From positions 1 to 64,000 of the IMG/VR virus record IMGVR_UViG_3300028772_000011: a stretch of DNA of 64,000 nt. One strand, given 5' to 3'. The notes under the pieces were generated by a model. That model had not been told where the DNA came from. It worked only from the letters and a program-made list of their open reading frames with translations, and ran no database searches. The translations under genes and the position numbers were made by a program. Positions 4,544-22,815 of the stretch are shown here, one piece after another. This DNA comes from a virus. The first letter of the stretch is position 1; each line of letters begins with the position of its first letter.

Positions 4544-4553
4544 GAATTTATAC

Positions 4554-4561
4554 TATTTATA
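4554..4561 (+). promoter_or_regulatory. Putative late promoter TATTTATA
   Basis: Motif 11 nt before the ATG at 4573. Confidence 0.55.
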
Positions 4562-4572
4562 ATAAAAATACG

Positions 4573-5355
4573 ATGGAACAAAATTTCGGATTAGCAAAAG
4601 CAATAATCTTTCAAAATTCTGAAAGCTTATTTAAGACAAATCAAGGTAAACGAATAATAAAAGAATATATGTCTATTATTAGAGATAGTAAAATTCTTTT
4701 AAAAGAAAATTCTGTTTATAATTATATTGAATCACAAATTTACTCTGAAACTACTAAAGACAAGGTTGTAGAGTCAATTGGTTATCTGAATAATATTAAT
4801 AAGAAGCAATTAAAAGAAGAACATAATAAAATATTTAACTTATTAAAGGAAAATAACATTGTAAAAATTTCAGATATAACTAATGAAAAACTTTATGAGG
4901 ATATTGATGATTTAATTTTCATGAAAAAATCGATTAAATTTATAAATGAAAAAGTTGATTTAGTTAATTCAGTTGTTGAAACAATTAAAAATAATAAGAT
5001 AGTAATAATTGAAGAGAAAGATATTGAAACAATACAGTTAGATGAGCAAGCAATAGCATATTTAGTTAATAATTTTAATGAGAAATACGCAGATGTTTTT
5101 AACGAAGAACAAAAGGCGCTGTTTGAAAGTATTTCTTCAACGAATGAATCAGATCAAATTGTAACATTTGAGAAAACTAAAAAAGAGTGTTTAGATATAA
5201 CAAATGAGTTTTTAAAGGAAGCTATTGATAATGAAACAAAAGCCAAGGTATTATCAGTAAAAGAGAAACTTTTAGAAGATAAATTTTCAAAACATACATT
5301 TATTGAAGATATGTTAAAATACATCACATTAAAAGAAGCATTAGGAGAAGAATAA
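4573..5355 (+). CDS. Hypothetical helical protein, probably head-associated
   Basis: Long ORF directly after the portal with a late motif upstream; Glu/Lys-rich. Confidence 0.6.
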   Translation: MEQNFGLAKAIIFQNSESLFKTNQGKRIIKEYMSIIRDSKILLKENSVYNYIESQIYSETTKDKVVESIGYLNNINKKQLKEEHNKIFNLLKENNIVKISDITNEKLYEDIDDLIFMKKSIKFINEKVDLVNSVVETIKNNKIVIIEEKDIETIQLDEQAIAYLVNNFNEKYADVFNEEQKALFESISSTNESDQIVTFEKTKKECLDITNEFLKEAIDNETKAKVLSVKEKLLEDKFSKHTFIEDMLKYITLKEALGEE

Positions 5356-5356
5356 T

Positions 5357-5899
5357 ATGAAAATTAAAATGAAAGAGAGCGAGTTAAAAGGACTTGTATT
5401 AGAAGCATTAAACAATGTGTTATTTCCAAAAAATGATAATGATAAAAAAACAGTTAATGAGGTTTTCGGACTATCTCAAAAAGAGAAAGATTTAAAACAA
5501 TTGAAAATCAAGATTCAACAAGCTTTTAATGAGATTAACGCTTTTAATTTTAAAAGCTTATTTTATCAACCAGGAAATGGAAACCAACAAGAATTAACTC
5601 AAAGAGGTTTAGAAATTAGGGTTAAACAAGCTGGTGATGATCTACCAACATTTAGAGAACTTATACCAGAACTTTTTGATAAACAAATAAGAGCGATTCG
5701 CGTAAAATGTGAAGTATCTGAATCCGAAATTATAGACGGGTTAATCCCAGATACCTTTGGATCTATATATGATAGTAATTATTTCATCATTAACGATACT
5801 GGTAAATATTATGCAAAATTAGAGCTACATAAAAAATTTCCAGATTTAGTTAAATATCACAATATGGAATTTATAATGGATAATAAATACTTAAATTAA
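5357..5899 (+). CDS. Hypothetical protein, putative internal head protein
   Basis: N-terminal MKIKMKESELKGLVLEAL leader resembles those of other putative head proteins here. Confidence 0.5.
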   Translation: MKIKMKESELKGLVLEALNNVLFPKNDNDKKTVNEVFGLSQKEKDLKQLKIKIQQAFNEINAFNFKSLFYQPGNGNQQELTQRGLEIRVKQAGDDLPTFRELIPELFDKQIRAIRVKCEVSESEIIDGLIPDTFGSIYDSNYFIINDTGKYYAKLELHKKFPDLVKYHNMEFIMDNKYLN

Positions 5900-5900
5900 A

Positions 5901-6257
5901 ATGCAGGAATTCTATATAAATAAAAATTCAACACTTCCACTTTTAAAAATGGAATTATTGTGTGATGGTAGGACAGACTTCAATAAGTTTTATCAAATGA
6001 TTCAGAATTCTATAATTACGTTTTCTATGGAAGATATTAACACTGGTGTCATTAAAGTTGCTAATGAACCAGCATTGGTATTACCAAAAGAAACTTCACA
6101 TAATGATGAGTATTTGGTTTGTTATAAATGGAGGCCAAGAGATACAAAGGTAAGTGGTAAATACATTGGTAAATTTAAAATAGAATTTGGTGAAGAATAC
6201 GGTGGAGGAACACTCATAGTTCCAATTCAAGAGCAATTAATAATTTACATTCAGTAA
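5901..6257 (+). CDS. Ig-like virion protein (BppU N-terminal-like)
   Basis: FYINKNSTLPLLKMEL...YKW...DT...GKYIGKFKIEF pattern resembles BppU_N-like beta-sandwiches. Confidence 0.5.
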   Translation: MQEFYINKNSTLPLLKMELLCDGRTDFNKFYQMIQNSIITFSMEDINTGVIKVANEPALVLPKETSHNDEYLVCYKWRPRDTKVSGKYIGKFKIEFGEEYGGGTLIVPIQEQLIIYIQ

Positions 6258-6264
6258 AATAAAT

Positions 6265-6294
6265 ACCCCATTATAATCTAAAATATAATGGGGT
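6265..6294. terminator. Bidirectional intrinsic terminator
   Basis: ACCCCATTATA-N8-TATAATGGGGT perfect stem between convergent genes, flanked by A/T tracts. Confidence 0.8.
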
Positions 6295-6303
6295 TTTTAT
6301 ATA

Positions 6304-6969
6304 TTATGCTTTTGTGAGATTATAAATAGCAGAATATTTTTCTTTGATAAACTCTTTTAATTTATCGAAAAAATCAGGAACAGGATCTGTATCGGATAAT
6401 GTATCCAGTAAATTTACCGCGTAACTAATAAAGGCATATTCAATCTTATCATCTAATAATATAGAAACTTCATTATCGATCTGTAAGAGTTTCATAAATT
6501 CATTTGGTTCTTTTGTTGAAGAACCAGTCTTTGGTGCGAATAATTTTTTAAAAACACTAACAGTATCTGCTGACACCCCTATAATATTTCCAACTACTGG
6601 TAACAAGCCAAGTCCAATTTTTAAAACATCCCCTCCAACCTCTTTTACCTTTGCTAATGCTTCTTCCTTATTTTTACTTTTTTGTAATATGTTTATAAAT
6701 GTTCTAAGTTCGCCAACACTTAACGTCCCATCATCAACAATAGAAGATCCATCTATTTGAATATTTTGTTGGTTACCAGTTATTGGTTGTGAAGTAGTAG
6801 TTTGTGTATTTGAAATGGGTTGTTGGGTAGCAGTTGATGTTGTAATTGATGAGTCAAATGTATCACTATTAAATGTATCGGTAAAGGTATCACTTTCATT
6901 TAATTTAATTTTAAAATCAGAGTTTAATTTACCAAACATTTCAAACATTTTAATTACATCTCTATTCAT
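6304..6969 (-). CDS. Hypothetical protein (putative head protein)
   Basis: Shares its N-terminal leader with 6979..7344; Thr/Gln-rich linker. Confidence 0.6.
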   Translation of the reverse strand: MNRDVIKMFEMFGKLNSDFKIKLNESDTFTDTFNSDTFDSSITTSTATQQPISNTQTTTSQPITGNQQNIQIDGSSIVDDGTLSVGELRTFINILQKSKNKEEALAKVKEVGGDVLKIGLGLLPVVGNIIGVSADTVSVFKKLFAPKTGSSTKEPNEFMKLLQIDNEVSILLDDKIEYAFISYAVNLLDTLSDTDPVPDFFDKLKEFIKEKYSAIYNLTKA

Positions 6970-6978
6970 ATCTAAATT

Positions 6979-7344
6979 TTATTTATATCCTAATTCAACC
7001 AAAGCTTGTTTTACAAAGGCCAAAACTCTACTTATAGAAACAACATTATTTTCTGGTGTATATCCAAGTGTTGAAAACCAATTTTTAAATGCACCTGAAA
7101 ATTCAGTAGATGTATTTATTTTAGTCCCAGCCTTTGTTACCTGAGTAGCCTTATTTTGTACGTTAGCTAAATATTTAACATCTGATGGTTGAGTCGCCTG
7201 GGTATTTTGCTCTGGTTTAGAATCAACTCCAAATGTAGCACTACTATTATCGTAGGTTGGGTTAAAAGTATCAAGTTCGTTTAAAGTAAAATCAGGGTTC
7301 AACATTTTCATGTTTTCAAATAATTTTTTAATATCGTTTTCCAT
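6979..7344 (-). CDS. Hypothetical protein (putative head protein)
   Basis: Late motif at 7369-7362; N-terminus paralogous to 6304..6969. Confidence 0.6.
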   Translation of the reverse strand: MENDIKKLFENMKMLNPDFTLNELDTFNPTYDNSSATFGVDSKPEQNTQATQPSDVKYLANVQNKATQVTKAGTKINTSTEFSGAFKNWFSTLGYTPENNVVSISRVLAFVKQALVELGYK

Positions 7345-7361
7345 TTTAGTGATGATTTTAT

Positions 7362-7369
7362 TATAAATA
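7362..7369 (-). promoter_or_regulatory. Putative late promoter TATTTATA
   Basis: Minus-strand motif 17 nt before the ATG at 7344. Confidence 0.55.
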
Positions 7370-7414
7370 GATTCAAAATTAAAAATAGTATATTTTTCAA
7401 CAATTTAATTCCAA

Positions 7415-7447
7415 ACTTGTTTTTCTTATATTTTATTGGTACATTTG
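7415..7447 (+). promoter_or_regulatory. Bacteroidota sigma-A-type (early) promoter for DNA polymerase
   Basis: ACTTG (-33), 20 nt spacer, TACATTTG (-7, TAnnTTTG). Confidence 0.75.
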
Positions 7448-7477
7448 CAAAAATCAAACGTAAACTTAAAGTAAAAA

Positions 7478-10400
7478 ATGCAAGAAATTTCAGAAGAACG
7501 TATTAATCAGTTCCTATCAGGCAGAGACCAAATGATGGGTATTATAGCAATGGAATGCGGATATCAAGACGAGCAAGTTTCGATCATATATAGGCATCCA
7601 ACAGCTGGTAAAAAACTTAAAAAGGTTGATTTCGAACCATTTGTGTGGGCAAAAATGGAAGGTGCAAGAAAATTATATATTGACCCTAAGACAGGTAAAC
7701 AAGATAAAATATTATTACAAAAAAAATTAACACAATTTGGAATTACGGTAAAGGGGTTAAATATTCACTCAGATGATGGTAATACAACCGAACGATTAGA
7801 AAATGGTTATCGAATATTGTTTGAGGCAAAAAATAAAATGTCTTTCAATAAGTTTCTTCAATTTTTCAAATATGGTGGATGTGATGTCTATGGACAGGAT
7901 AAATTATTTTTAGCAGTCCTTCCTGTAGAACAATATATGATGAAATCTGGAAAACGTATGTTTAAAGGTTTCGAAGATTACGACCAATTATTACGTCTGG
8001 AATTTGATTTAGAAACAACTGGATTAGATCCAACCACAGATTCGATTGAACAAATCGGTCTACGTTCAAATCACGGGTTTGAACAAATAATAAGTATTAC
8101 AGGTTATACCGAGGAAGAAAAAAGAGATACTGAACTTAGAGCTTTAGACCAATTCTTTCAAATAGTTCATAAATTAAAACCAGATGTTATAACAGGGCAT
8201 AATTCAGAGAATTTCGACTGGAATTTTATTATAGTTCGCTGTCAAATGTTAGGTACAGACATCGCCGAAATGAGTGATAAATATTTTGAGATACCAATTT
8301 ATAAGAAAAAGAGAAAAACAGCTTTAAAACTTGGTGGTGAGGTAGAATATTTTAACCAAACTATGATCTGGGGCCACAATACAACAGATTCAATTCACGC
8401 TGTTCGTAGGGCACAAGCTATTGATTCCAATATGAAAAAAGCTTCATTAAAATATGTAAGCGAATACTCAAAACTTAAAAAACCTAATAGAGTTTATGTT
8501 CCTGGGGACAAAATATCAACCATATGGAATGACACAGACAACGACTACGCATTTAATGATTCAAATGGTGATTGGTATTTAGTTGATGATTTAAATGCCT
8601 TAAAAGACGGCTATGTGATTGTGGACGGTCGTTATATCGTCGAACGTTACCTATTGGATGATTTATATGAAACCGACAAAGTAGAATTAAGATATAACCA
8701 AGCAAATTTTTTATTATGTAAAAACCTACCAACCACATTTACTAAGGTTTGTACAATGGGTACGGCTGGTACTTGGAAATTGGTTATGATGGCTTGGTCT
8801 TATGAAAATAATTTAGCTATTCCAGATTTTGCACCAGCTGGTAAATTTACTGGTGGGTTAAGTAGATTATTTAAAGTTGGTTTTGTTGAAAGTGTTGCTA
8901 AATTAGATGAAAATTCTTTATACCCAGCAATAACTTTAACTTGGGATATTAAACCATCATTAGATATAACTAACGTAATGATGTCTTTTTTAGGTTATTT
9001 TTTAGATAAACGTGAAATTTCTAAAGGACTCAAAAATGAGGCAAGTAATAAAATAGATGAACTAAAAGAAAAAATAGAATCAATCCAACCAGAAAGTGAT
9101 GAATATTCTGAAATAAAAAAAGAAATATATCAATGGGAAAGCGTCTATAATTTAAATGATAAGAAACAAATTGTCCAAAAAGTGTTTTGTAACAGCTTTT
9201 TTGGGAGTTTTGGAGCTCCAAATTTATTCCCTTGGGGTGATTTGCTATGTGCCGAGAAGATAACTTGCATTGGAAGACAGTCGTTACGATTAATGACTAA
9301 ATGGTTTGGTGATAGGGGTTACGAAGCAATTGTAATGGATACAGATGGTATAAATTTTTCACTACCTAAACATTATGATTTTTCAACTAAAGGTAAAAAT
9401 CAAAGAACATATATTGGTAAGGGTTTAAATAGAAATACAGTAGAAGGTGAAGTTTATTACGGAGTTGATGCGGATGTTGCAGAATTTGCAGATCTATTTC
9501 TCCGTGGAAAAATGGGTCTTGAGTCGGAGGACTTTTGTATTTCAACACTAAATTTCAGTCGTAAAAATTATGCAGACCAATTCAGCAACGGAAAAATCAA
9601 ATTAGTCGGTAATAGTATTAAATCAAAACGAATGCCATTATATATTGAAAAATTTTTAGATATTGGTATTAAACAATTACTCAATAATAATGGCAAAGAA
9701 TTTTTAACAGGTTATTATGATTATATTGATAGAATTTATAATTATAATATTCCTCTAATAGAAATTGCATCCAAAGGTCGAATTAAGAAATCAATCAAAG
9801 ATTATATAATAAATTGTAAGGGGGTTAATAAGAAAGGTACGCCAAATTCACGTCAAGCTTGGTATGAATTATGTATAAAGCATGATATTACTCCTGAAAT
9901 GGGTGAAATAATTTATTATATTAACATAGGTACTAAAAAAAATGATGGGGATGTAAAAAGAGAAAAGATATATAAAATTGGTGATGATGGAAAGTTTGAA
10001 ATGCAAGATTCAAAAGATAAAAATGGAGAATTATTATTAACACCAAAAGGAAAACAAAAAAGGGAAAAAATAGTTATTGGTGAAGAAATAAAATTAAATT
10101 GTATTATGATTCCTTCTTCGTTAATTGAAAGTGGGGCTAGTTTTACTGATTTAATTGGAACAGAATTTGAAGGTGTTGATTATAACGTGGTAAAATATTT
10201 GGACCAATTTAACAATAGAATTAACCCTTTATTAGTCTGCTTTCACCCAGATATAAGAAATAATATATTATCTGTTAATCCAAAAACTCGTCAATATTTT
10301 ACAGAAAAAGAAAGTAAATTAACATCTGGGATGCCAAATAAACCAGAAGACCAAGACACATATGAACAACTTATGAAAATGGAGGACAAAGAAATTAAAT

Positions 10401-10753
10401 ATTGGATTTCTGTAAATGAAATTCCACCATTTGTTAATGAAATTAATATGGATTGGGATTTAGTAGTTAAAGAATATACCGATAGGCAAGAATTATTAAA
10501 AACAGGATATTTAAAAATCGAATTTGAAACATATGTAAAAATAATTGATTCTTTAGATGAAGATGATATTAATAAGTTTATTGATGATGGTCAATTCCCA
10601 AAAGAACTATTAGAGTTTTTACTTTTTGATGGATCAACAATGGAATTTAAATCAAAAGAATATGGTGTTGTTATTGGTACTATATATGATATTATAGATA
10701 AAGACCTTTCAAAACAGGATATAGAAGATGATTTAAATTTAGTCGAATATTAA
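7478..10753 (+). CDS. polB: Family B DNA polymerase with 3'-5' exonuclease
   Basis: ExoI FDLETTG, ExoII HNSENFDW, motif A DENSLYP, motif B KVFCNSFFG, motif C DTDG, and RKNYA. Confidence 0.93.
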   Translation: MQEISEERINQFLSGRDQMMGIIAMECGYQDEQVSIIYRHPTAGKKLKKVDFEPFVWAKMEGARKLYIDPKTGKQDKILLQKKLTQFGITVKGLNIHSDDGNTTERLENGYRILFEAKNKMSFNKFLQFFKYGGCDVYGQDKLFLAVLPVEQYMMKSGKRMFKGFEDYDQLLRLEFDLETTGLDPTTDSIEQIGLRSNHGFEQIISITGYTEEEKRDTELRALDQFFQIVHKLKPDVITGHNSENFDWNFIIVRCQMLGTDIAEMSDKYFEIPIYKKKRKTALKLGGEVEYFNQTMIWGHNTTDSIHAVRRAQAIDSNMKKASLKYVSEYSKLKKPNRVYVPGDKISTIWNDTDNDYAFNDSNGDWYLVDDLNALKDGYVIVDGRYIVERYLLDDLYETDKVELRYNQANFLLCKNLPTTFTKVCTMGTAGTWKLVMMAWSYENNLAIPDFAPAGKFTGGLSRLFKVGFVESVAKLDENSLYPAITLTWDIKPSLDITNVMMSFLGYFLDKREISKGLKNEASNKIDELKEKIESIQPESDEYSEIKKEIYQWESVYNLNDKKQIVQKVFCNSFFGSFGAPNLFPWGDLLCAEKITCIGRQSLRLMTKWFGDRGYEAIVMDTDGINFSLPKHYDFSTKGKNQRTYIGKGLNRNTVEGEVYYGVDADVAEFADLFLRGKMGLESEDFCISTLNFSRKNYADQFSNGKIKLVGNSIKSKRMPLYIEKFLDIGIKQLLNNNGKEFLTGYYDYIDRIYNYNIPLIEIASKGRIKKSIKDYIINCKGVNKKGTPNSRQAWYELCIKHDITPEMGEIIYYINIGTKKNDGDVKREKIYKIGDDGKFEMQDSKDKNGELLLTPKGKQKREKIVIGEEIKLNCIMIPSSLIESGASFTDLIGTEFEGVDYNVVKYLDQFNNRINPLLVCFHPDIRNNILSVNPKTRQYFTEKESKLTSGMPNKPEDQDTYEQLMKMEDKEIKYWISVNEIPPFVNEINMDWDLVVKEYTDRQELLKTGYLKIEFETYVKIIDSLDEDDINKFIDDGQFPKELLEFLLFDGSTMEFKSKEYGVVIGTIYDIIDKDLSKQDIEDDLNLVEY

Positions 10754-10759
10754 TAATAT

Positions 10760-10786
10760 GGTTGTAACTTGATTTAAGTTACAACC
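10760..10786. terminator. Hairpin terminator between convergent genes
   Basis: GGTTGTAACTT-GATTT-AAGTTACAACC perfect inverted repeat. Confidence 0.7.
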
Positions 10787-10802
10787 TATGTTATTAATTT
10801 AT

Positions 10803-10892
10803 TTACACTCTTATCAAACGAAGAGGACAACCAAAAGTTTTTAATACTGCAATAGTAGCATTAGTATTAGAATTATAATTTAAATCCATAGC
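10803..10892 (-). pseudogene. Orphan alternative C-terminal tip of a Fib_succ_major domain (AMDLNYNSNTNATIAVLKTFGCPLRLIRV*)
   Basis: In frame with 10896..13559 after its TAA TAA stops. Ends GCPLRLIRV* versus the gene's own CRSLRLIKV*. Confidence 0.7.
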
Positions 10893-10895
10893 TTA

Positions 10896-13559
10896 TTATA
10901 CTTTTATGAGACGTAATGATCTACAAGCATTAACATATAGAGCCGCATTAACTGAACTTAAATTACCATTAGCATAATTACATTTAAATACATACTTATC
11001 TACAGTGTAGAAACCACAATCACCAGTTAATCCAGAAAAAGTTCCTACAACAGCATCCGTACCTCCACTACCCAATGCACTAAATCCACTACTATTATCA
11101 GCCCCTATATTAGGTGTATTCCAATAGCTTAACCCTTCTTTTTTTAATTTTCCACCACTGATATCATCTCCTCCTAGAGTTGTACTTAATGCAGTAAAAT
11201 CAGTTTGTGTGGGTACTTTCCAACCCCAAGGAGTTGTTGGGTTAGTATCATTATAATAGTCTATGTCCATTTGTAATAATTTAACAGCAAACCAATTGTA
11301 TAATTTACCATATACAGCTCCAATGGAAGCATCATTATTATAATAACACCACATAGCTGCTGCTTTTACTGCTTCGTAAGTTTTTTGTGTTATTGTTCCA
11401 GTTGTCTGGCCATAAATAGCATCATAAAGTTCTTTAGCCCCTGACCTCCCAATTTGCTGTACGGAAACTGAATCAAAAGAAATACCATGTCTGTCAGTAA
11501 TAGTATCTCGATTAGCATAAAAACTCAAGCCTAAATTAGCTGTAGGGGCTTTATACATCATAGTATATAATGTCCAATCTGTAGAAGATATAGTAAATAA
11601 TGTCAAACTTATACTGGAATCAGTTACAGCACCTCCAGTCCCTTTCGTGTTCTTAGCATAAAAAGATATTTTATACCATAATCCTATTGATGTAGCTGGA
11701 TATTGATAGATTACCCCAGTATTACCTGCTATGTTTGTTATAGTTTGTGACGAAGTACCTTCATATGGATCTATTATATTTGAACTTGTATTCCCTCTCG
11801 TAGAAAACCATCCAGGAGCTACACCATTTACATAAGCCCCTTCCATAGTTCCATTAACAATTTTCTCTGTATTACTATTAATAGTTACATTATTAATCAA
11901 ATTACCTTGTGGTGTACATGTCATCTCACAATTAGAAGATTGCCATTGTTGAGTACCTATTGTAACATTTGGTATATCAGGGTATAGATTCTTAATAAAA
12001 TTTGACTCTGTTAAAACTTGTACTGGTGTTAATGCTTGTGAACGTATAATATGAGCTGCTATAGAACCTTTAAATGGAGTTTGATTAGTAACAGCGGTCA
12101 TTAAACAACTTAAATTAATAGAAGTTATAATACTAATGGTTTCAAATAACACTCCATTTATAAAAATATCTAATGTATTATCTCCCTTAGCAATTATAGT
12201 AATTATTGCATTTTTACCTATTAAAAAGTCTACCTTTTTTGTTGTTGCTTTTACTGTAAATAGTGAATTTCTTATTTTTAAACTTGATGCATTATCAATT
12301 CCAAACAAACTTCCACCACTACTATTGTCACTAACATAAAAATTGGAAGTAACTCCTCTAAATGTCATAGCATTAACCAAGGTAGTTATACTCCAAGCAT
12401 CTGTATCAGTAAAATTAATAGTTGGATGTAACAGATAATTTAATCCTTCATTAGTATTCTTAATATAAGGATTTTCATTTGGAGCAATAGTTCCAAGATA
12501 ATAAGGATATGAAGAATTCCCAACACTCGACAAATCTAAAGGATCACCTGATAATACTTCTTTAATTGATACATTATCAAGACTTAACGAAGCAGCACCA
12601 GCAGTCATTATCCATAATGTTGTAGATGTAGCAACAAAAGTTTCTGAAAACATACCATTATTTTTCCTCGGTGTTGATACTCCAGTAGTTGGATTTAATA
12701 GAATGACCCCTGATGCATAATTAGAAATTTCAAACACTATCTTATATTGTTTTCCAACAGTTAATACATTAGGTTGATTTAAGTTTACTGCTGAGGATAC
12801 TAAATAATTTGCAGTTCCTCCACTAATAGTAATCCCAATTCCTTTAGACCAAATGGTATCAGTGTCAAATCCACCGTTAGCAACTTTTTCAATAGTATCT
12901 AAAACCTCTGTTCCTTGTGGAGTAATAGAGTAAAGTTTTTTGACATTATTAGTTCCAATTGCAAGATTACCCCCAACACCAAGCCAACCTAATTTAATAG
13001 AATTATACATGTTATTAAGTTTGCACAATTTAATGTAAGCAGTTATACTATTACCAAGAACTTCTACTACAGAACAATTATCTATTGATCCTATAAAAGT
13101 ACCACTATTACAAGATATAAAAACATGACCTACAGTAGTAGAGGTTAAAAAACATGTAAATGTGCCATCAGAAGAATAAGAATCTGAACGTACAGTTCCA
13201 CCTTCTAATAATACAGAACAAGTTCCACTAGTATAATTCGATATTGTTAATGTAACTTTATATTTTTTACCTACTCGAATAATTACCGAAGTTGGGTAAA
13301 TATATGTAATAGCTGTTAAACCTCCATTACAGTTTGCAGTTCCTCCTGATATATTCCAATTACTACCTTTTGTCCAGCCAGTATCAGTATCAAATCCACC
13401 ATTGGTTACTAACTCAGGTCCGAAATTAGTGTTATCCCCTAACACTCCACCATCCGCTACAACCCTATCTTTATAGGCATTAAATAGAGATAATGCAGAA
13501 TTATAAAAATTCAACATTACTTTACCTGCCATTGCTATTTGTTCTCTAAATAAACTCAT
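10896..13559 (-). CDS. Receptor-binding/adhesin-like virion protein: CBM-like repeats, LamG-like domain, C-terminal Fib_succ_major domain
   Basis: Two NGGFDTDTxWxKG..ISGGTAN repeats; IFINGV...FKGSI LamG-like region; IGTQQW, CYYNND, YGKLYNW, GWKVPT, GGKLK, SGFSAL, SLRLIK motifs. Confidence 0.75.
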   Translation of the reverse strand: MSLFREQIAMAGKVMLNFYNSALSLFNAYKDRVVADGGVLGDNTNFGPELVTNGGFDTDTGWTKGSNWNISGGTANCNGGLTAITYIYPTSVIIRVGKKYKVTLTISNYTSGTCSVLLEGGTVRSDSYSSDGTFTCFLTSTTVGHVFISCNSGTFIGSIDNCSVVEVLGNSITAYIKLCKLNNMYNSIKLGWLGVGGNLAIGTNNVKKLYSITPQGTEVLDTIEKVANGGFDTDTIWSKGIGITISGGTANYLVSSAVNLNQPNVLTVGKQYKIVFEISNYASGVILLNPTTGVSTPRKNNGMFSETFVATSTTLWIMTAGAASLSLDNVSIKEVLSGDPLDLSSVGNSSYPYYLGTIAPNENPYIKNTNEGLNYLLHPTINFTDTDAWSITTLVNAMTFRGVTSNFYVSDNSSGGSLFGIDNASSLKIRNSLFTVKATTKKVDFLIGKNAIITIIAKGDNTLDIFINGVLFETISIITSINLSCLMTAVTNQTPFKGSIAAHIIRSQALTPVQVLTESNFIKNLYPDIPNVTIGTQQWQSSNCEMTCTPQGNLINNVTINSNTEKIVNGTMEGAYVNGVAPGWFSTRGNTSSNIIDPYEGTSSQTITNIAGNTGVIYQYPATSIGLWYKISFYAKNTKGTGGAVTDSSISLTLFTISSTDWTLYTMMYKAPTANLGLSFYANRDTITDRHGISFDSVSVQQIGRSGAKELYDAIYGQTTGTITQKTYEAVKAAAMWCYYNNDASIGAVYGKLYNWFAVKLLQMDIDYYNDTNPTTPWGWKVPTQTDFTALSTTLGGDDISGGKLKKEGLSYWNTPNIGADNSSGFSALGSGGTDAVVGTFSGLTGDCGFYTVDKYVFKCNYANGNLSSVNAALYVNACRSLRLIKV

Positions 13560-13562
13560 AAA

Positions 13563-16040
13563 TTACATCCCCCACCATAAATAAATTTGTCCTGCACTAC
13601 GTATCTCACATTGTAAATAATTCGTACTTAATGGTATGTAGTCACTTTGCAATGCTCCATAAATCCAATTGCTAGTGTACCCACTAAATATAGAAGTTGC
13701 TAACGTTCCTCCTGTCATAATAACCTTAAAAGGTTTTTTGATAATTGGATTCATTATAGTAAGAGCTTGATTAGTTCCCATAGTAACAGAGAACTCCTCT
13801 CCTGTAGTCATATCTATATTGAAGCCTGGTAGAGCTACTGTTGTTATAGGTTGATTATATAATCCAACTATATTTCCATTGGCATCTACTTTAAACAAAG
13901 TTACCCATGTACCACTTCCTTTGGTGGCATTAGCTACAGTACACTTTTCAAACAATACAGTACTCATTTGATTAGAGTGTCGTATGTCTCCTACTGCATC
14001 ACCTACAGCTGTAGTTATTGATTGATATACATAACGGAGAGCTAAGTCGCGATAATTTCCTAATGTATTATTATTTATCTCTATAATTCCAGTTGTATTT
14101 TTTTGGAATGACTGAGTAGAATCGGTCATAGACAACTTCGAATATATCATAACATTATTAGAAGTATTTACATAAAAGGAGTTAATACCTGATGTAGGAG
14201 AAAAAAACATAGCGTTACCAGAACCATCAAATGAAAACCACTTGTTATATATCCCGAACCCAAATCCATTATAATTAATACTAAAAGGACTACCAACAGT
14301 GATTGAAGTTGCACTAATATAAGTAGCAATAATACGTTCCTCTGAATTGATTATAATTTTTGCTCCTATCATTGCAGCACTGAATGCCGTACCAATGCCA
14401 GTTATAGTAGTACCATTTGTTGAAATAGTTCCAGAAATAGTCCAAGGAGTAGTATGATAGATTATACCACCATTTTGAGAAACAAACTTAGTTATTTGAT
14501 CATTTGATACAGGTAATGTATTTGGATAAATTGTTTTGAATTTTAAACTAGCAGCATCCCAAACAGATACTCCTTTGTCGATAGGAACCTCTTCACGAGT
14601 AGCTAAAGGTTGAGTACTTCCAACGTCTCCAACTCTTGCTATACCATTATTATCAAATACTAATAATCCATCATTAACTCCATCATATAACTTAGCCCTT
14701 ATACCAACTAACTGTCCTGGAGAAAGTCCTGCAACTGCTAAATCACGAAGTATTATCTCATTTTTAGTTGTTAATACTTGTTCTGCATGAGTTTCGTAAG
14801 AAGCACCTAATTGAGATATGTTCTCTACATGTAAGGTTCCAGCAGCATCCAATAAAACAGAGTGAGTACCATTAACAAGACTTGTTGGGTCTATTGAAAT
14901 TAAGGTTGAATCTATTACTTTATTATCTCCATCAATACATAGATAGTGGTTTGTAAGGTCATCTGTTTGGAATACTCCGTCAGTCAGTCTACAATAATAA
15001 TAAGTGCTACCAAAATAAGCTAAAGCCCCAAAATCACCCACACAATAAGAATACTTACTATTAACTCCATTACAAGAATCTACTCCACCAATACAATTAA
15101 TATAAATACTATCAGGACCGTTAAAAACTTGACCAATACCTCTACAATTTATATGTATGTTATTTACCCCATTAAAGGCATTCTCAAGAGCTTCACAATT
15201 TATATAAGTACAATTACTACCCCTAAAACCAGATTGTCCTGCCTTACAATTAATAAATTTAGCACCTAAAGGAGAGATGGTAGTGAAAGTATTATTTAGT
15301 TTATTTCCACAATTTTCGAATGAACCAGTTAATGACCCACCGCCAGCAAACATCTCTCTGTCTAAACTATTTATATTCTTAAAAGTACCTGAATAAATTG
15401 AACTAGAATTAAATAGAGTACCGCCTATACTATTTATATTTTCAAAGATTCCAGAGAACTCCAAAGCACTATGAAAACTTTCAACACTAGTAACTTCAAT
15501 ATTTCTAAATACTCCAGACAATATAGCATCACTAGTGCCATATATTCTACCTTTACAATTCTCAACCAACAAGCCTGGATAATTACCAGATACAAGTAAT
15601 CCGTTGTGAACGAAATCAAGACCCCTTAATTTTATATTATCTGCCATTACTATACACCCACTGTGACCTATTTTAACATCAGCTTGTCCAGTATCTGATA
15701 CTAAATATATATAAGAAGTATCTAAAACTAATTGTGTGTCCATACCACAGAATCTAGCTTTTATTAAAATATAAATAGGACTATCAGAAGTAGGAGACAT
15801 GGTTTTTGCTATATTATATACTGATTCTAATTCCAGACCATTATCAGAATTACTTTGTCCTCCAAATACTGTTAGATATCTATCCTGATTAAATAAAGCT
15901 GCTGCAACTCCTACATTTTCCTTACCACTTAAATCTACAGCAGGAATAGCTGCTATTAACTGAGCAGCAACTCCTACATCTTCTTTTGAAGTATCATGAA
16001 CCTCAGTCCAAATTCCATTTATTTTTATTTTGTGTTTCAT
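13563..16040 (-). CDS. Tail fibre/spike-like protein with beta-helix repeats
   Basis: Repeating SGxFxNI and YINCxG units suggest a parallel beta-helix; shares KEDVGVAA linkers with the upstream fibre gene. Confidence 0.6.
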   Translation of the reverse strand: MKHKIKINGIWTEVHDTSKEDVGVAAQLIAAIPAVDLSGKENVGVAAALFNQDRYLTVFGGQSNSDNGLELESVYNIAKTMSPTSDSPIYILIKARFCGMDTQLVLDTSYIYLVSDTGQADVKIGHSGCIVMADNIKLRGLDFVHNGLLVSGNYPGLLVENCKGRIYGTSDAILSGVFRNIEVTSVESFHSALEFSGIFENINSIGGTLFNSSSIYSGTFKNINSLDREMFAGGGSLTGSFENCGNKLNNTFTTISPLGAKFINCKAGQSGFRGSNCTYINCEALENAFNGVNNIHINCRGIGQVFNGPDSIYINCIGGVDSCNGVNSKYSYCVGDFGALAYFGSTYYYCRLTDGVFQTDDLTNHYLCIDGDNKVIDSTLISIDPTSLVNGTHSVLLDAAGTLHVENISQLGASYETHAEQVLTTKNEIILRDLAVAGLSPGQLVGIRAKLYDGVNDGLLVFDNNGIARVGDVGSTQPLATREEVPIDKGVSVWDAASLKFKTIYPNTLPVSNDQITKFVSQNGGIIYHTTPWTISGTISTNGTTITGIGTAFSAAMIGAKIIINSEERIIATYISATSITVGSPFSINYNGFGFGIYNKWFSFDGSGNAMFFSPTSGINSFYVNTSNNVMIYSKLSMTDSTQSFQKNTTGIIEINNNTLGNYRDLALRYVYQSITTAVGDAVGDIRHSNQMSTVLFEKCTVANATKGSGTWVTLFKVDANGNIVGLYNQPITTVALPGFNIDMTTGEEFSVTMGTNQALTIMNPIIKKPFKVIMTGGTLATSIFSGYTSNWIYGALQSDYIPLSTNYLQCEIRSAGQIYLWWGM

Positions 16041-19000
16041 TATTCTGGTAGATTTTGTGGTAAAATGTTGTTGATATCAAATCCTAAAGCAACTAAACGG
16101 TCAATTTCAGGTTGAGGTAGATTATTGTATTGGAAACTAAATCCAGTATTATATATATTTTTTATTGAACTGATATTTATAGATTCAAGATTATTATTCT
16201 GTAAATAAATATAATTCAAATTATTCAGTGAATCTAAACCTATTATATCAATAGGATATACTGATTGATTAATGCTTAATGTTCTTAAATTTGGAGTTGA
16301 AGCCATGTTTATAGATTGTAATTCAGTATTTCCTATTTCCAAATAAAATAAATTATTCAATCCTAATAAATTTATTTCAGTTAATTTATTTCCTCCACAT
16401 GAAACATATTGTAATTCTTGTGATGAACTTAAATCTAAATATTCCAGTTTATTAAAACCACATAATAAGGCTTGTAAATTATTTAATCCTGTTAAATTTA
16501 AAACAGATACTAATAATCCATATTCCTGAGATACATTTAAAATATACACTTTATTTGAGTCTAAAACAGAAGGTAGAATAACCCCATACCCATTCGCCAT
16601 GTCTTGTAGACTAGGATTATCTCCAAATAAAGCACCTAATTGAATATCATTATCCCACCATTCAGTGTGAGGGTTTTTAGAATCATCAAATAACACTGCT
16701 AACTGTTCACTTTGTGGATTGGCATCACGAATAGCCCTTAATATGTCAACATCAGATAGCACAACTACAGGTTCACTAGTATCATACCACACTTTTATAT
16801 TTGGATTAACAGGTTCTTCCGTTCCTATATAAACTTCTTCAAATATTCCACTTGTGTATAATTCATCAATTTCCTGTTGAAGTGTATTAGTCTTATTATC
16901 ATACTCAGTATGTACCCCTTCCACAACAGCTGTAAACTCCTCTCTTGTTGTATACCCGCTTAAATCTACTATCGGTAAATCATCAATTATACTAGCCTGT
17001 ATTCTCTTATTTTCCTTTGGTTGAACATGTATATAATACGGTGTATTTATTTGTCTAGTTGATTTTAATAAATCCCCATTAAGAGCTACATAAGTTTGTA
17101 AAGTTAGAGCATCATCTTTAGATGGAATCTTCCAACCATTGGTTGTATCAACGATACCTTTTCCATTGGAAATAGTATATGCGTTATATAATCTGCCATA
17201 TGTTGATACAATTAATTCATCGGTTGTTAACTCATCGATATATGGTATTATAGAAGTACTCCCAGTATTATCTAATACCCATTGTTCATTGGTTAAATTA
17301 TTATTTATAAGAGACCCATCTTGATAATGAGTTACTTTTAAATTTGAAGTGATCCAAATTTGAGTTCCTATTTTACAAGTATCATATATATTATTATCAT
17401 AATCTTTATAAATTGCTGTAGTCTTACCATCAGGTAATGATAATTCTAAAGTAGTACAATCCCTAACAACTCTTAATGATTGTCCATTATTAGGATGTTT
17501 ATTATCAGTTACATATAAAGATGAATATCCAGCATACAAATTTATAGCTGTATATCCAATAAAACCAGGTGTTTGGGTTGAAGTCCAAATAGAACTAATT
17601 CCACCAACACCAGCGTTTAATGCGGTACCTGTAAATATGCCAGTAATTCCATTTCTAGTACCTCCTGGAATTAAATTAAATCCATATTTATCAATTCCAT
17701 ATATATCTATATTTTGAGAATCAATCCATCTTGGGTGTAATATAGTTGATAAAGGTAATTTTTCCCATTTACTTTGGTCAACTTCAGAAAATAAAGCTGC
17801 TGCCACTCCTACATCCTCCTTACTATCGTGAGCATGAGAAGTTATATTTCCAGTAAGTAAGTTTTCAATTTGTTGTTTGGTAAGAATGTAGTTAGAAAGT
17901 CCGTTTAATTTATTAAGTAAGTTATTAGTTAATACATTCGTGTCGGAATTACTCTCATAACTAAGTTTTATTTGGGCAGAACTCATTACTGCGTTTAACA
18001 TATCTGGGTCAGATGTTTTTACAAAAGAGGCATTAATCCCAACAGAAGTAGCTTGATATACTGCCCACTTTCCATCTCCATCATCTAATATGAAGACAGA
18101 AAATGGTAGTTTTGGTATGTTGTATTCGTTTCTCTCTGGAATCCCAGCTAATACAACTTGCTCTACAGCACCCTGTACTAAATTATATAATTTTTGTAGT
18201 GTATCTCCTGCTGAGGTTACTCCATCTCTAAGGTTTGAAATTAAAATAGCTGCTACACCTGCATCCTCTTTACCACTTAAATCAACTACTGGCAGCCCAT
18301 CGATTATACTAGCATGAATCTTAACTGGAAGTCCATTCCTCTGTTTTGGTTGAATATAATTGTGATCTTCAATTTGTATGATATTATAAACATTCAATTC
18401 ATCATTATTATAAGCACAAACTGCTCCATCAGTACCACTGAAATCTGAACCGATTAATGAGCCATCACGATATTTAGTTTCACATAAGTTTTCAGCTAAC
18501 CACCATTGAGTTCCTATTTTTACGCATTTATATATTTGACCATCATTACCAATATATTCAGCCGTATGTCCTGTAATATTTATTGGATTATCAATTATTG
18601 CTCTAATTGAACACCCTGCTTTTTTATTATCACTCGATGCTCCATTTGATAATGAATTTGTTTGAAAATAATAATCATAAACTCTCAGTGCATTGTTATC
18701 ATTAAAACTATCAGCCAACCACATATAAAAAGTAGAATAATCCCCTAATATAAAGTGAAATGTACCATCAGTCTCTCTATATCCACTAGCTCTTTCATTG
18801 AAACCATATTCATTAGTTGCTGTTGCATTTGGTGCATCCCAATACAAAGTACCTGTTTCTTTTAATTTTTGCCCACCATTACCATTTCCACCTAAAAATG
18901 CATATAAAATATTAAATTCATTTTTAGTTGAAATATGTGCACTAGATGTTGTAATACCTCTTGGATCTGTTGTAGCATACCAATTATAAAGCCTACCATA

Positions 19001-19273
19001 TTTGATAGATTGTACATCGGTAGTTGCATTTTCCCATTTACTCTGTTCAAAATTAACAAGGTCAGAATCATCCACACCATCTTTAAACCAATATTTAGTA
19101 TTTCCATTTATTTCATCCAATATTCGTACTTCCATTGTTGGAAACCTGACAGCTATAGGTATAGTATTTATTGCTTCAGCAATAGATGAATAAGGTCCTT
19201 CCCAAGTATTTACTGGGACAGGATTAACTGGTTGTATACCAAACGGTAATTGTAATCCTTCAGTTATCCCCAT
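16040..19273 (-). CDS. Multi-domain fibre/adhesin with two circularly permuted Fib_succ_major domains and C-terminal leucine-rich repeats
   Basis: YGRLYNWY/KIGTQWWLAENL and YGFNLIPGG/KIGTQIW/YGRLYN motif sets; LxxLxCxxNxLxxLDL repeats near the C-terminus. Confidence 0.75.
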   Translation of the reverse strand: MGITEGLQLPFGIQPVNPVPVNTWEGPYSSIAEAINTIPIAVRFPTMEVRILDEINGNTKYWFKDGVDDSDLVNFEQSKWENATTDVQSIKYGRLYNWYATTDPRGITTSSAHISTKNEFNILYAFLGGNGNGGQKLKETGTLYWDAPNATATNEYGFNERASGYRETDGTFHFILGDYSTFYMWLADSFNDNNALRVYDYYFQTNSLSNGASSDNKKAGCSIRAIIDNPINITGHTAEYIGNDGQIYKCVKIGTQWWLAENLCETKYRDGSLIGSDFSGTDGAVCAYNNDELNVYNIIQIEDHNYIQPKQRNGLPVKIHASIIDGLPVVDLSGKEDAGVAAILISNLRDGVTSAGDTLQKLYNLVQGAVEQVVLAGIPERNEYNIPKLPFSVFILDDGDGKWAVYQATSVGINASFVKTSDPDMLNAVMSSAQIKLSYESNSDTNVLTNNLLNKLNGLSNYILTKQQIENLLTGNITSHAHDSKEDVGVAAALFSEVDQSKWEKLPLSTILHPRWIDSQNIDIYGIDKYGFNLIPGGTRNGITGIFTGTALNAGVGGISSIWTSTQTPGFIGYTAINLYAGYSSLYVTDNKHPNNGQSLRVVRDCTTLELSLPDGKTTAIYKDYDNNIYDTCKIGTQIWITSNLKVTHYQDGSLINNNLTNEQWVLDNTGSTSIIPYIDELTTDELIVSTYGRLYNAYTISNGKGIVDTTNGWKIPSKDDALTLQTYVALNGDLLKSTRQINTPYYIHVQPKENKRIQASIIDDLPIVDLSGYTTREEFTAVVEGVHTEYDNKTNTLQQEIDELYTSGIFEEVYIGTEEPVNPNIKVWYDTSEPVVVLSDVDILRAIRDANPQSEQLAVLFDDSKNPHTEWWDNDIQLGALFGDNPSLQDMANGYGVILPSVLDSNKVYILNVSQEYGLLVSVLNLTGLNNLQALLCGFNKLEYLDLSSSQELQYVSCGGNKLTEINLLGLNNLFYLEIGNTELQSINMASTPNLRTLSINQSVYPIDIIGLDSLNNLNYIYLQNNNLESINISSIKNIYNTGFSFQYNNLPQPEIDRLVALGFDINNILPQNLPE

Positions 19274-21528
19274 TATATATTATTTATTTCTTTATTATTT
19301 AATGTTATTACGTGGTTGTGATTTTTATAATATGGGATTGCGTTTTTCATAATATAAACATTATAAGCAGTTTCAAATCCGCCAGCATCTTCAATATTCA
19401 TATCTATTACGTGATATGAATTTGTTAATTCGATATTCATTGCATTAATATCAAAAACACTAATAATATTTCTACTTTCTGGAATTGCCAATACAAATAC
19501 ACTATTATTACTCCCAGTTTGTAAATTAATTACTTTGGCATCTTCATTAAATATTCTACCACTTAAGCCTCTAATTTCGTTTGTGGTACTTGGTACATTT
19601 TCAGTACTTCCATAAAAAATCATATTATCAAATTTTATTTCTTTTATTTGCGTTGTTCCGTTTAAATTTCTATGTGTATCAAAAATCTCAATCATATATT
19701 TTATTGATTGTAAATTTTGTAATTTAAGACTTTCATTAGTATGGTTGAATTCACTAATAGCCCCACCTAATGGGTTAATTTGGAATAAATTATTTATTTG
19801 AATCCTTGGTGAATTGTCTACATAATAGTACAATTTATAACCAGTTAATGGTTTTACTAATTCATTAATATATTTATTTAATTTAATATATGCATTAATT
19901 AATGTGTCCGTATTACCTTTTTCTCGTCGATAAATAGTTTCTGGATATGTAATTGAATTAGAATTAAGAGTCATATCTATAGTTGGTTCAATATATTTAT
20001 CTGATGTAGTGACATTGAATTCATAATTATAGTTATTTTTTATTTTACTATAATCATGTTTACCATTGAAAATCCTAAATTTTGATATTTCACCAATAAA
20101 TGATCCACTAAAATATTTTTCTATTGGTAATAAATATTGAGTTGAATAATTATTATCGAATCCAATCAAATTTGAAAGACCCTGTGTACCTCCGCCAATT
20201 GACAAATTAAAAGGTACCAATTCTTGTTTTTGGTCTCTTTCGTCTAAACTTCTAAATAAAAGTTCTGGTAAATTTTTAGATATAAATATTAATTTTCCAT
20301 TAATATAAAATTGTAAAATATAAGTTCTATTTGCATCACCACATACTGAATAATTATTCATTATCATTCTTATTGATATAGAACTCCACTCATTATCATT
20401 AATCATTTTCGGATTTGAATATTCTTCCACAACATCAAATTCTTCATCACAAGAATATATAATAGTTCTATACCCTATACTTCCATCATCTTTTACTCTA
20501 AATCCTATTTGATTATTTACAATATCATTAATAATTTTTGCTTTTAATTTTTTCTCTGGTAACTCCTCGATATTATTTACAGTATTACCAGCTAATGTTC
20601 TATTCAGTAATAAATATAGATTTGGATTATGTTTTTCGATATCAGATATAGAATATTGCTTTGATTCATTAAATGTTTTTGTATTCAATCCATTTTTACC
20701 TCTATTGAGCAATAAGAATTTATTGTCTGTTAATATCTCATAGATACCCTGTTGATTGATATTAAAATTATCATCTGTTGTTATTGTTATCCCAGTTTCT
20801 AATATTATTTCATTATTTATTGATTTTATTTCAAAATTTTCTTCTAAATCTTTATTGTATCCATACCAAAATTTATTTTCAGCTCTTAGTCCCATATAGA
20901 AAAAAAATCCTTTATTATCTGGATATTTATAATTTAACGTATTCATTAAAGGAAATGTTATAAAATCTGGCTTTATTGTAAAGTTAAATGTTATTTCATC
21001 GTTAATAATATTTGGTAATATTTGGTATTCTTCTTTTGACTTATAAACTCCCTGATAAAATCCACCATTGAAACGTATAGAGTTACCATCTTCGGTTTCG
21101 ACTAACGTTGTTGGGTAAATATATTCCCCAGTGTTTCCACTAATAGCATTTAACGTTAATCTCATATCACCAACATCAATAACATGAGAAGAGTCAGTAA
21201 TTAACTGTAATAGTTCATTAGATGTAATAGTTTTTTTATCGAATAAAATTAACCCATTATCTATTCCAGTAAATCCAATATTTTTTAATTCCAAACCTTT
21301 ATTAATCGAGCTGCTCCATTTATAGTTACCCGACCCATATATTTTATTTACGCCTATACAAGAATTATCATTAATATCAATAAATGAAATTAGATTAGAA
21401 TCATAATACGTTGTATCATCTAAAAGAGTAGAAGGGTCAACATCTTTTGATAATGTTAAGTCCCAGTACTCTGAAAGTGATAATTTTAAGTCTATTTTAT
21501 TGTTATTGTTTTCAAAAATATTTGACAT
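19273..21528 (-). CDS. Virion structural protein with LamG/ConA-like domain
   Basis: NEWSSISIR...FYINGKL...IGGG...FIGEISKFRIFN LamG-like signature; first gene of the fibre operon with a late motif upstream. Confidence 0.6.
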   Translation of the reverse strand: MSNIFENNNNKIDLKLSLSEYWDLTLSKDVDPSTLLDDTTYYDSNLISFIDINDNSCIGVNKIYGSGNYKWSSSINKGLELKNIGFTGIDNGLILFDKKTITSNELLQLITDSSHVIDVGDMRLTLNAISGNTGEYIYPTTLVETEDGNSIRFNGGFYQGVYKSKEEYQILPNIINDEITFNFTIKPDFITFPLMNTLNYKYPDNKGFFFYMGLRAENKFWYGYNKDLEENFEIKSINNEIILETGITITTDDNFNINQQGIYEILTDNKFLLLNRGKNGLNTKTFNESKQYSISDIEKHNPNLYLLLNRTLAGNTVNNIEELPEKKLKAKIINDIVNNQIGFRVKDDGSIGYRTIIYSCDEEFDVVEEYSNPKMINDNEWSSISIRMIMNNYSVCGDANRTYILQFYINGKLIFISKNLPELLFRSLDERDQKQELVPFNLSIGGGTQGLSNLIGFDNNYSTQYLLPIEKYFSGSFIGEISKFRIFNGKHDYSKIKNNYNYEFNVTTSDKYIEPTIDMTLNSNSITYPETIYRREKGNTDTLINAYIKLNKYINELVKPLTGYKLYYYVDNSPRIQINNLFQINPLGGAISEFNHTNESLKLQNLQSIKYMIEIFDTHRNLNGTTQIKEIKFDNMIFYGSTENVPSTTNEIRGLSGRIFNEDAKVINLQTGSNNSVFVLAIPESRNIISVFDINAMNIELTNSYHVIDMNIEDAGGFETAYNVYIMKNAIPYYKNHNHVITLNNKEINNI

Positions 21529-21544
21529 TAATATCTGATTTATC

Positions 21545-21552
21545 TATAAATA
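21545..21552 (-). promoter_or_regulatory. Putative late promoter TATTTATA for the fibre operon
   Basis: Minus-strand motif 16 nt before the ATG at 21528. Confidence 0.6.
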
Positions 21553-21629
21553 CAATAAAAACGTAATTTATTCGCTAAATGTAAAACATTTTTAGAAAAT
21601 CTTTATATTTATTATTAAATGAAATTATA

Positions 21630-21869
21630 ATGCGAAAAATAAAAATAACAAAATCACAACTTAATGAACTTCTAAATTCAGATCTTATGTTTTCAACCGA
21701 TTCAACAAGTGAATATGTTGGATCAACAGTTTCAACAACAGAGCCTGTAGGCGATAATAATTTTGGTAATCCATTGACAACTGATAAAAAGGCGTCCGAA
21801 ATGTCACCTTCTCCGCTTTCCAGAATGGGAAATGGTGGTGGATCGTATAATGGACCAGTAATAACATAA
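21630..21869 (+). CDS. Small putative internal head protein
   Basis: MRKIKITKSQLNELL leader; TATTTATT at 21606. Confidence 0.55.
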   Translation: MRKIKITKSQLNELLNSDLMFSTDSTSEYVGSTVSTTEPVGDNNFGNPLTTDKKASEMSPSPLSRMGNGGGSYNGPVIT

Positions 21870-21953
21870 ATAAAAAACTAAAAACAAAACAATGGAAGCA
21901 GATATAACACTTTATAAAATAAAAGGTTACGCCATAAGTTCAGATATTTAATT

Positions 21954-22487
21954 ATGTTAATATTAAAAGAAGAAAATCACAAATTAAAAGGTACAAAACA
22001 TACTCTACCAAAAAAGATAGTTGATTTGTATCATAACATTATATTGAAGTATCCACAATTCTATGCCAGTGGTGGGTTCATAAAAGCAGAGAATGTGCTC
22101 GAAAATAAAGGTATTGTGACAATGGAGTGGCTGAAAGGTATGAAATCTTTTTTTAATAAACACGTTGATAGTAACGATATTGATTACACACTTGGCGGTG
22201 GAATAGTTGTTAAAACATTTGTAGATAATAAATTGGATCAGTTAACTGCTTCAACGCCAAAAACGCGCAAGCAGCACACTAATAACCCAGTAAAACCATT
22301 AGCACTAGCAGATAATTTATCTGGACACAGAGCACAAAAATCGTCTCAAGCTCTTTCAATGGTAAATTCATTAATGAGCGATGCAATACCAAATTTAAAA
22401 TGTTCAAACACTAAAGAAATTAAAGGAAATACTATTTATATTACAGAAGAACAATTTAAAGAACTAAAAAATTACATAAAAAAATAA
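21954..22487 (+). CDS. Hypothetical phage protein (putative head-associated)
   Basis: Operon position; C-terminal IYITEEQFKEL motif. Confidence 0.55.
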   Translation: MLILKEENHKLKGTKHTLPKKIVDLYHNIILKYPQFYASGGFIKAENVLENKGIVTMEWLKGMKSFFNKHVDSNDIDYTLGGGIVVKTFVDNKLDQLTASTPKTRKQHTNNPVKPLALADNLSGHRAQKSSQALSMVNSLMSDAIPNLKCSNTKEIKGNTIYITEEQFKELKNYIKK

Positions 22488-22492
22488 ATATT

Positions 22493-22804
22493 ATGCAAAG
22501 CAATTTAGAAAAAAAAGCAATTGTAAAAAGAAACGAATTAGAGGTTAAAAATAATTTTGACCAAACTAATGAGTATAGTGATAAAAACTCAAAAAAAGGG
22601 GGAACAGGAACTGGAAGTTTAGTAGATATAAATACGCCTTATTTTGATACGAGTAGCGGAGGTAGTTCGGTAGATCAATTAGAAAGAAACAAACAAAGTT
22701 TATATACTTCACAAGGACTTACCAGATACACTTCAGAACAAGGTTATGGAGAACAAATCACTATTGATACGTCATTAAACAAAGGGCAATACTTCGCCGA
22801 ATAA
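22493..22804 (+). CDS. Hypothetical protein
   Basis: Tightly packed ORF in the + strand operon. Confidence 0.6.
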   Translation: MQSNLEKKAIVKRNELEVKNNFDQTNEYSDKNSKKGGTGTGSLVDINTPYFDTSSGGSSVDQLERNKQSLYTSQGLTRYTSEQGYGEQITIDTSLNKGQYFAE

Positions 22805-22815
22805 TATATTTATAA

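Follow-up and report, generated by a model that had tools for sequence, protein, structure and literature searches.

Why should the gene for a viral fibre be followed, in its own reading frame, by a second and different version of its own end? The question is raised by a stretch of 64,000 nucleotides (the window, in what follows) that makes up the first 64 kb of a 93,274-bp virus record, IMGVR_UViG_3300028772_000011 of the IMG/VR collection (CheckV completeness 27%). At 10896..13559 on its minus strand, the window encodes an 887-residue protein that resembles distal tail fibres and carries a FISUMP (Fib_succ_major) domain at its C-terminus. Directly behind this gene lie 29 codons that spell out another end for a domain of the same kind. 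The answer that we favour, with a probability of roughly 85%, is that these codons (10892..10806) are what remains, without function, of an earlier 3' end of the fibre gene, stranded when a foreign tip recombined into the gene. The end that is now attached to the protein is called tip A below, and the stranded one tip B, or the orphan.

Anatomy of the gene end

The fibre protein terminates ...NACRSLRLIKV, and its gene is closed by two consecutive stop codons, TAA at 10898-10896 and TAA at 10895-10893 (together 10893..10898, minus strand). Beyond them the same frame runs on with GCT ATG and reads AMDLNYNSNTNATIAVLKTFGCPLRLIRV (10892..10806), an orphan peptide of 29 codons that begins AMDLNY and ends CPLRLIRV, before a third TAA at 10805-10803 brings it to a halt; with that stop codon, tip B occupies 10803..10892 on the minus strand. 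Its ATG also opens a 28-residue open reading frame (ORF) at 10803..10889. A preliminary description of this DNA, made from the letters alone, had drawn attention to a second, diverged domain end lying in frame behind the gene and ahead of a terminator, and on this point it was exact.

The terminator-like element is a hairpin at 10760..10786 with an 11-12 bp stem (RNA fold -18.2 kcal/mol, z = -4.86). Read from 10786 to 10760 or the other way, this one hairpin scores as a terminator, and it serves both the fibre gene and the convergent gene for a family-B DNA polymerase (7478..10753). Since the hairpin stands between these two genes, the orphan lies within the 3' untranslated part of the fibre mRNA. 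That it lies in frame is expected by chance in 1 case of 3 and, behind a double TAA, counts for nothing. Stop-codon recoding and read-through were considered as ways of joining the orphan to the protein and rejected: the record is densely coding when read with genetic code table 11, and two TAA in a row separate the one frame from the other.

The orphan is the live end of a relative's gene

A protein designated P0021 (877 residues, found on 9 contigs, the longest of 711 kb) ends with the orphan's exact 29 residues, and so does a variant of it, P0122. The 330-kb viral contig L001 (IMGVR_UViG_3300029983_000007, lineage G001) encodes a protein identical to P0021 at 4001-6634. That a contig of 330 kb is rated only 46% complete, and that P0021 also resides on a contig of 711 kb, places tip B in a very large phage. 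The window's fibre protein and P0021 share 62% amino acid identity over residues 1-832, and their genes are orthologous. What stands idle in the window is, accordingly, the working end of a full-length orthologous gene in a relative; the preliminary description had staked its proposal on the existence of just such a relative, and its idea of a displaced tip survives.

Alignment of the two genes at the DNA level locates the exchange. Starting from the 5' end of the fibre gene, identity to L001 is 97.5% (13559-13400), then 44.8% in a variable cassette (13399-13080), 82.4% (13079-11900), 41.4% in a second variable cassette (11899-11450) and 84.7% (11449-11241). Near 11240, at a W-G-W-K-V-P block, it falls from about 85-93% to 72%, and it stays at 72.2% over 11240-11065. 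The last homology ahead of the swapped tip is a conserved block, A-D-N-S-S-G-F-S-A-L-G-S-G, at 11065..11102 on the minus strand, which the nucleotide alignment singles out as a candidate left crossover zone. The 172 bases that follow (11064-10893), with the live tip in them, cannot be aligned (23.8% identity with 90 gap columns). Identity to L001 then restarts at the very base after the second TAA: over 10892-10799, which takes in the orphan with its stop codon and the next four bases, 92 of 94 positions match (97.9%), and both differences are synonymous in the orphan's codons. The right junction therefore falls exactly between 10893 and 10892. Where the window has its tandem stop codons, which would have arrived with tip A, L001 has GGT GGT. 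Ahead of the shared GCTATGG, L001 reads ...AATGGTGGT and the window reads ...AGTATAATAA. L001 has a variable stretch of its own, of 27 residues, in the place of the 55 residues and two stops of the window, so that a simple deletion could not turn either arrangement into the other.

Tip B is rare in what has been sequenced. A protein-cluster search returned the P0021 cluster only, and an exact-pattern scan of IMG/VR for the orphan's DNA found it on the L001 contig only. A nucleotide search with the fibre gene of 50,697 GenBank phage records gave no match, and a metagenome scan with the whole fibre protein turned up 7 loci, none of them closer than L001.

Relation to the domain family

The Pfam model for Fib_succ_major (PF09603) matches residues 723-853 of the fibre protein with 59.5 bits, against a cut-off of 33.9; in a six-frame search the same model scores 63.8 bits. 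The narrower TIGR02145 model remains below its cut-off (37.4 bits, cut-off 41.65). For the short orphan, a hidden Markov model (HMM) of 39 columns was made from the C-termini of 106 homologues, with the window's own protein and P0021 left out. The orphan scores 23.4 bits with this tip HMM, over HMM positions 14-38 (the E value varies with the six-frame set, from 2e-5 to 1e-4), and none of 19,910 shuffled versions of the peptide reached that score (the best came to 10.3). No other short stretch between stop codons in the 93-kb record matches the tip HMM. It also aligns with the last positions, 159-183, of a 183-column HMM of the domain, at 7.3 bits. By sequence, then, the orphan is a genuine end of the Fib_succ_major-type domain family.

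The preliminary description had tied the orphan's identity to a match with the C-terminus of the Pfam model itself, and only the substance of that claim stands. When tips are presented in isolation, the general Pfam model matches neither the orphan nor the live 55-residue tip; it also misses the native tip of L001, which served as the positive control. The literal Pfam test is for that reason uninformative about the orphan, not negative, and the resemblance is carried by the family tip HMM.

Tip A is itself somewhat aberrant. Despite its SLRLIKV end, and despite the presence of its protein on 21 contigs, it scores negative with the tip HMM. One residue more than usual precedes its terminal S-L-R-L-I-K motif, and at 11060-11068 (residues 125-127 of the 180-residue domain) it has Thr in a G-x-G-x-R motif in which at least 90% of 52 homologues have Arg.

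The exchanged segment is hypervariable

Variability was measured on 52 phage homologues, aligned over their final 180 residues. Mean entropy is 1.25 bits in the conserved core, rises to 2.8 bits over residues 126-171 and drops to 1.07 bits in the terminal G-x-S-x-R-L-I-K motif. The incoming segment, tip A, consists of 55 codons at 10899..11063 on the minus strand (protein residues 833-887, domain residues 126-180) and coincides with the hypervariable stretch and the terminal motif; the comparison with L001 and the entropy of the homologues single out the same unit.

AlphaFold models of the two domains have pLDDT (predicted local distance difference test) scores of 92.7 for the window and 92.0 for native L001. 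A Foldseek search of pdb with the window's domain model found no match at E <= 0.001. The wide list of VIA-align matches to the model is almost wholly of the C-type-lectin-like domain (CTLD) type, with every Z below 6: InvE (5.4), TvpA (4.9), an FGE-like protein (4.8), Lcl of Legionella (4.0) and TaqVP (3.0), and also Link modules and selectins. The FISUMP domain thus likely has a C-type-lectin-like fold, if only on modest Z values for a predicted structure. This assignment is in line with that of Wu et al. (2018, PMC5758913), in which Fib_succ_major stands beside DUF1566 among the CLec-type targets of diversity-generating retroelements (DGRs), in the category ('d') whose variable region is C-terminal. 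The background on which the preliminary description had drawn, that the C-terminal part is the variable one in CLec-type folds, is broadly right, given the entropy profile of the 52 homologues and a VIA-align list that includes TvpA and TaqVP. In the native L001 model the orphan begins at the fourth residue of a beta-strand (149-156), that is, in mid-strand; it is therefore an arbitrary fragment and not a unit of folding.

Probable origin of the orphan by exchange of the fibre tip

These results favour a replacement of the gene's end, as the preliminary description had also supposed in speaking of C-terminal displacement: the orphan's peptide is that of L001, identity to L001 steps from 23.8% to 92 of 94 at one base, and the segment replaced is the hypervariable one. 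The course of events may be pictured as follows. An ancestral fibre gene would have ended as the L001/P0021 gene does today. In a mixed infection or some other encounter with DNA, a different FISUMP-tipped gene would have recombined with it. The left crossover would have taken place where the domain core is conserved, at some point from about 11240 to 11065 and up to the N-S-S-G-F-S-A-L-G block, and the right joint would have been illegitimate, made immediately past the donor's stop codons, so that homology would have assisted on one side only. By such an event 81 nt of the old hypervariable region would have been exchanged for 171 nt of foreign tip that brought TAA TAA with it, and the last 90 nt of the old gene would have stayed behind with their 3' flank as an untranslated region before the terminator. 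A correctly ended protein requires a joint that keeps a stop codon ahead of the old sequence, which may explain why the foreign DNA ends at TAA TAA.

We take the event to be recent, because the remnant has acquired no stop, frameshift or non-synonymous change. The presence of a protein identical to the window's 887-residue fibre on 15 + 6 contigs implies that the live arrangement is an established one. From its gene context, its mosaic pattern and its predicted fold, the fibre protein is probably receptor-binding.

Several observations weigh against this account, or at least complicate it. Searches for a donor of tip A in viral contigs, GTDB genomes and a set of 5.8 billion proteins brought back nothing beyond the window's own cluster, and the exchange partner is thus postulated. 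(Two weak matches of tip A in Planctomycetes are not credible as a donor.) L001 is no direct parent: the flanking scaffold is 72-85% identical to it and the orphan 98%, so that several events of different age must be superimposed. The 10893|10892 junction rests on one assembly. The intact frame and the synonymous differences fit a recent event, yet with only two sites to go by they leave selection possible.

Other explanations

The preliminary description had gone further and seen in the orphan a silent alternative tip, a reservoir that could be recombined onto the gene to change host range in the manner of the orphan modules of Rhs and contact-dependent inhibition (CDI) loci. The position of the orphan directly behind the gene, intact and in the same orientation and frame, is what such a reservoir would look like, and tip B does work as a gene end in a relative. 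As in Rhs/CDI orphans, an incoming end has displaced an alternative C-terminal fragment, which now sits immediately behind the full gene (the fragments there are start-less; here an internal Met codon happens to read as ATG). The parallel breaks down at the step that would make the orphan useful. The Rhs orphan of Salmonella LT2 re-fuses through 522 bp that are 95% identical with the main gene (Koskiniemi et al. 2014, PMC3967940). The orphan has no such arm: it is identical to the live tip at 52 of 95 nt (55%), which is no detectable homology, and the longest word that it has in common with the whole gene is 10 nt. It is also one 29-codon fragment, not a whole domain or an array, with no linked second gene and no evidence of re-fusion; being the last 29 of about 55 tip residues, with a start in mid-strand, it lacks the first half of the variable region. 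No further copies or orphans were found in the 93-kb record beyond the one, and none in 99 related loci with at least 82 such gene ends, where the sole other short hit is an end cut by a contig edge. With a partial tip in single copy, no homology arm and no switching machinery found in the partial record, the silent-cassette proposal did not hold up, and we consider it improbable.

A weaker form of it makes the orphan a downstream homology anchor, by which a co-infecting relative with tip B could restore that tip through a double crossover: 94 nt at 98%, together with the conserved upstream core, could be the arms for an exchange with an L001-like phage. The same can be said of any conserved flank, and selection need not be invoked. 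That the stranded 94 nt have been retained as a useful landing pad, which with the domain core would bracket the hypervariable tip as a counterpart of a DGR that dispenses with reverse transcriptase, is a speculation to which we give very little credit. Invertible switches of the kind found in tail-fibre genes (Gin/Cin/Pin, shufflons) were also considered and rejected; the orphan is in direct orientation, 10400-13700 holds only short inverted repeats at chance level and none that is meaningful, and the neighbours are a DNA polymerase gene and genes of the fibre module.

Domains like FISUMP are targets of DGRs, with the C-terminal region as the variable one (PMC5758913), and a place just downstream of the gene is a frequent one for template repeats, so that the orphan might be thought a template repeat or its relic; alternatively, the gene end might have been duplicated in tandem, with the two tips diverging afterwards. 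Compared with DGR targets (TvpA, 2y3c; TaqVP, 5vf4; PMC5758913), the window's protein is alike in domain class and in having its variability concentrated in the ~50 residues that lead up to a conserved terminal strand. It differs in that a whole segment has been exchanged, in place of adenine-directed mutagenesis, and in having neither a template repeat nor, in the partial record, a reverse transcriptase. Between the orphan and the live tip, which agree at 55% of positions, substitutions of every class occur and adenine bias is absent, and a search of the 93,274-bp record, 27% complete, for the reverse transcriptase family RVT_1 found no match. Duplication, for its part, is incompatible with two copies of which one has 98% identity to L001 and the other 55%, and leaves unexplained why the first half of the tip is unrelated. 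Of all the alternatives, this pair is the one to which we give the least credence.

It might also be supposed that the 28-codon ATG ORF (10803..10889) is a small gene in its own right and that ribosomes re-initiate on it past the fibre stops, its ATG being only 4 nt past the second TAA and its frame intact to the terminator. The peptide is, however, the last strands of a domain of about 180 residues, cut in mid-strand, and the same ATG is an internal Met codon in L001; no family of short proteins emerged, the other matches to the tip HMM being ends of long ORFs or ends cut by a contig edge. This we regard as highly improbable, and we say the same of an assembly artefact in which two co-occurring strain variants, one with each tip, were joined end to end by the assembler. 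The record is, to be sure, a metagenome-assembled contig, and it is the one assembly behind the junction. Against this, wrong joins by graph assemblers presumably arise at k-mers present on both sides, and the junction has no such k-mer; the protein with tip A is on 21 contigs; and in the collections searched tip B occurs only in lineage G001, which has no other nucleotide similarity to this region. An assembly chimera is accordingly unlikely.

The fibre module and its setting

The record encodes a terminase, a portal protein, a family-B DNA polymerase and a major capsid protein of the Gp23 type (Pfam Gp23, PF07068, 229.5 bits). On this combination of genes, the uncultured source virus can be classed as a giant phage of the T4 type. 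The minus strand carries a run of four large genes between 21528 and 10896; one of them matches a PHROG tail-fibre family, and the fibre gene is the last of the run. Immediately upstream of the fibre gene is a gene for a large structural protein of 825 residues (13563..16040, minus strand). Its final 310 residues are 95% identical to the end of the L001 neighbour, and the conserved joint of the module is made up of these residues and the fibre gene's first ~55 codons. Outside these 310 residues (13563-14495 of the window, compared with L001:569-3997) the upstream gene is unrelated or weakly related to its counterpart, and the L001 neighbour, a protein of 1142 residues, has an additional internal diverged copy (59%) of the same segment of ~210 residues. 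Another neighbour, a 1077-residue gene at 16040-19273, has three partial Fib_succ_major matches; its C-terminal end is not one of them.

When 4001-23900 of the window is compared with L001, nucleotide similarity is confined to the fibre module (10799-14687), which implies that the module moves between giant phages that are otherwise dissimilar. To judge from its sequence, the fibre gene is a mosaic relative to its L001 orthologue. The two further cassettes at 13080-13400 and 11450-11890 cannot be aligned with L001 (45% and 41%), and scaffolds of 82-97% identity lie between them. The first cassette and a conserved copy downstream of it each begin with an N-G-G-F-D-T-D-T...I-S-G-G-T-A module, and these two occurrences make up a direct repeat at 12841-12885 and 13366-13410. 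The alternation of variable cassettes with conserved scaffolds makes for at least three fibre parts that can be exchanged independently. On the other side of the orphan, some identity to the L001 flank (56%) remains in the 3' flank at 10798-10700; L001 has another, AT-rich hairpin after its fibre gene, and the 588-residue gene that lies downstream of that has no match in the window's record.

Comparison with known exchanges of host-recognition modules

In T4-type phages, modular exchange of adhesin and tail-fibre tips was reportedly described by Tetart and colleagues in 1998. The gp38 adhesins of these phages have hypervariable segments between conserved motifs, which are the crossover points (Trojet et al. 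2011, PMC3157838). The window is like these cases in much: the phage has a T4-type capsid protein, Gp23, the fibre has conserved N-terminal and joint regions, and a hypervariable tip is bracketed by conserved blocks, with the left breakpoint at or before 11102-11065. It differs in that the FISUMP tip is fused to the fibre, with no separate gp38 and its glycine-rich motifs, and in that the right joint is outside the conserved motif. It is because this breakpoint lies outside the conserved block that a remnant of the old end was left.

Remnants at mosaic junctions after swaps of receptor-binding modules are familiar from tailed phages, for example in lambda-type side tail fibres with a stranded 3' stub of tfa. 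There, as here, a dead 3' stub lies beside a swapped host-recognition module and corresponds to a live gene in relatives. The window differs from these examples in that its stub is of the same domain type as the incoming tip, belongs to a giant environmental phage and is in frame behind a double stop. A literature search on remnants of fibre genes brought up nothing specific.

Significance

We conclude that the peptide behind the fibre gene is a recent recombination scar of modular fibre-tip exchange, an event of a known kind. No new mechanism is revealed by it; phage evolution is already known to produce mosaic fibres and remnants at junctions. Its interest is that of a molecular fossil preserved with unusual clarity: between the displaced end and the end in use in a relative's gene, identity still stands at 98%, so that the breakpoints of the exchange can be read, the right one exactly and the left one to within a conserved zone of ~175 nt. 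Should the stranded DNA serve as a landing pad after all, giant-phage FISUMP fibres could trade lectin-fold tips by cassette exchange, and microhomology deletion at the shared N-Y codons could also make hybrid tips. For the FISUMP tip of these phages as a whole, it is the same C-terminal stretch that DGRs mutate elsewhere in the domain class that varies, and the way in which that stretch has changed here is by replacement of a segment.

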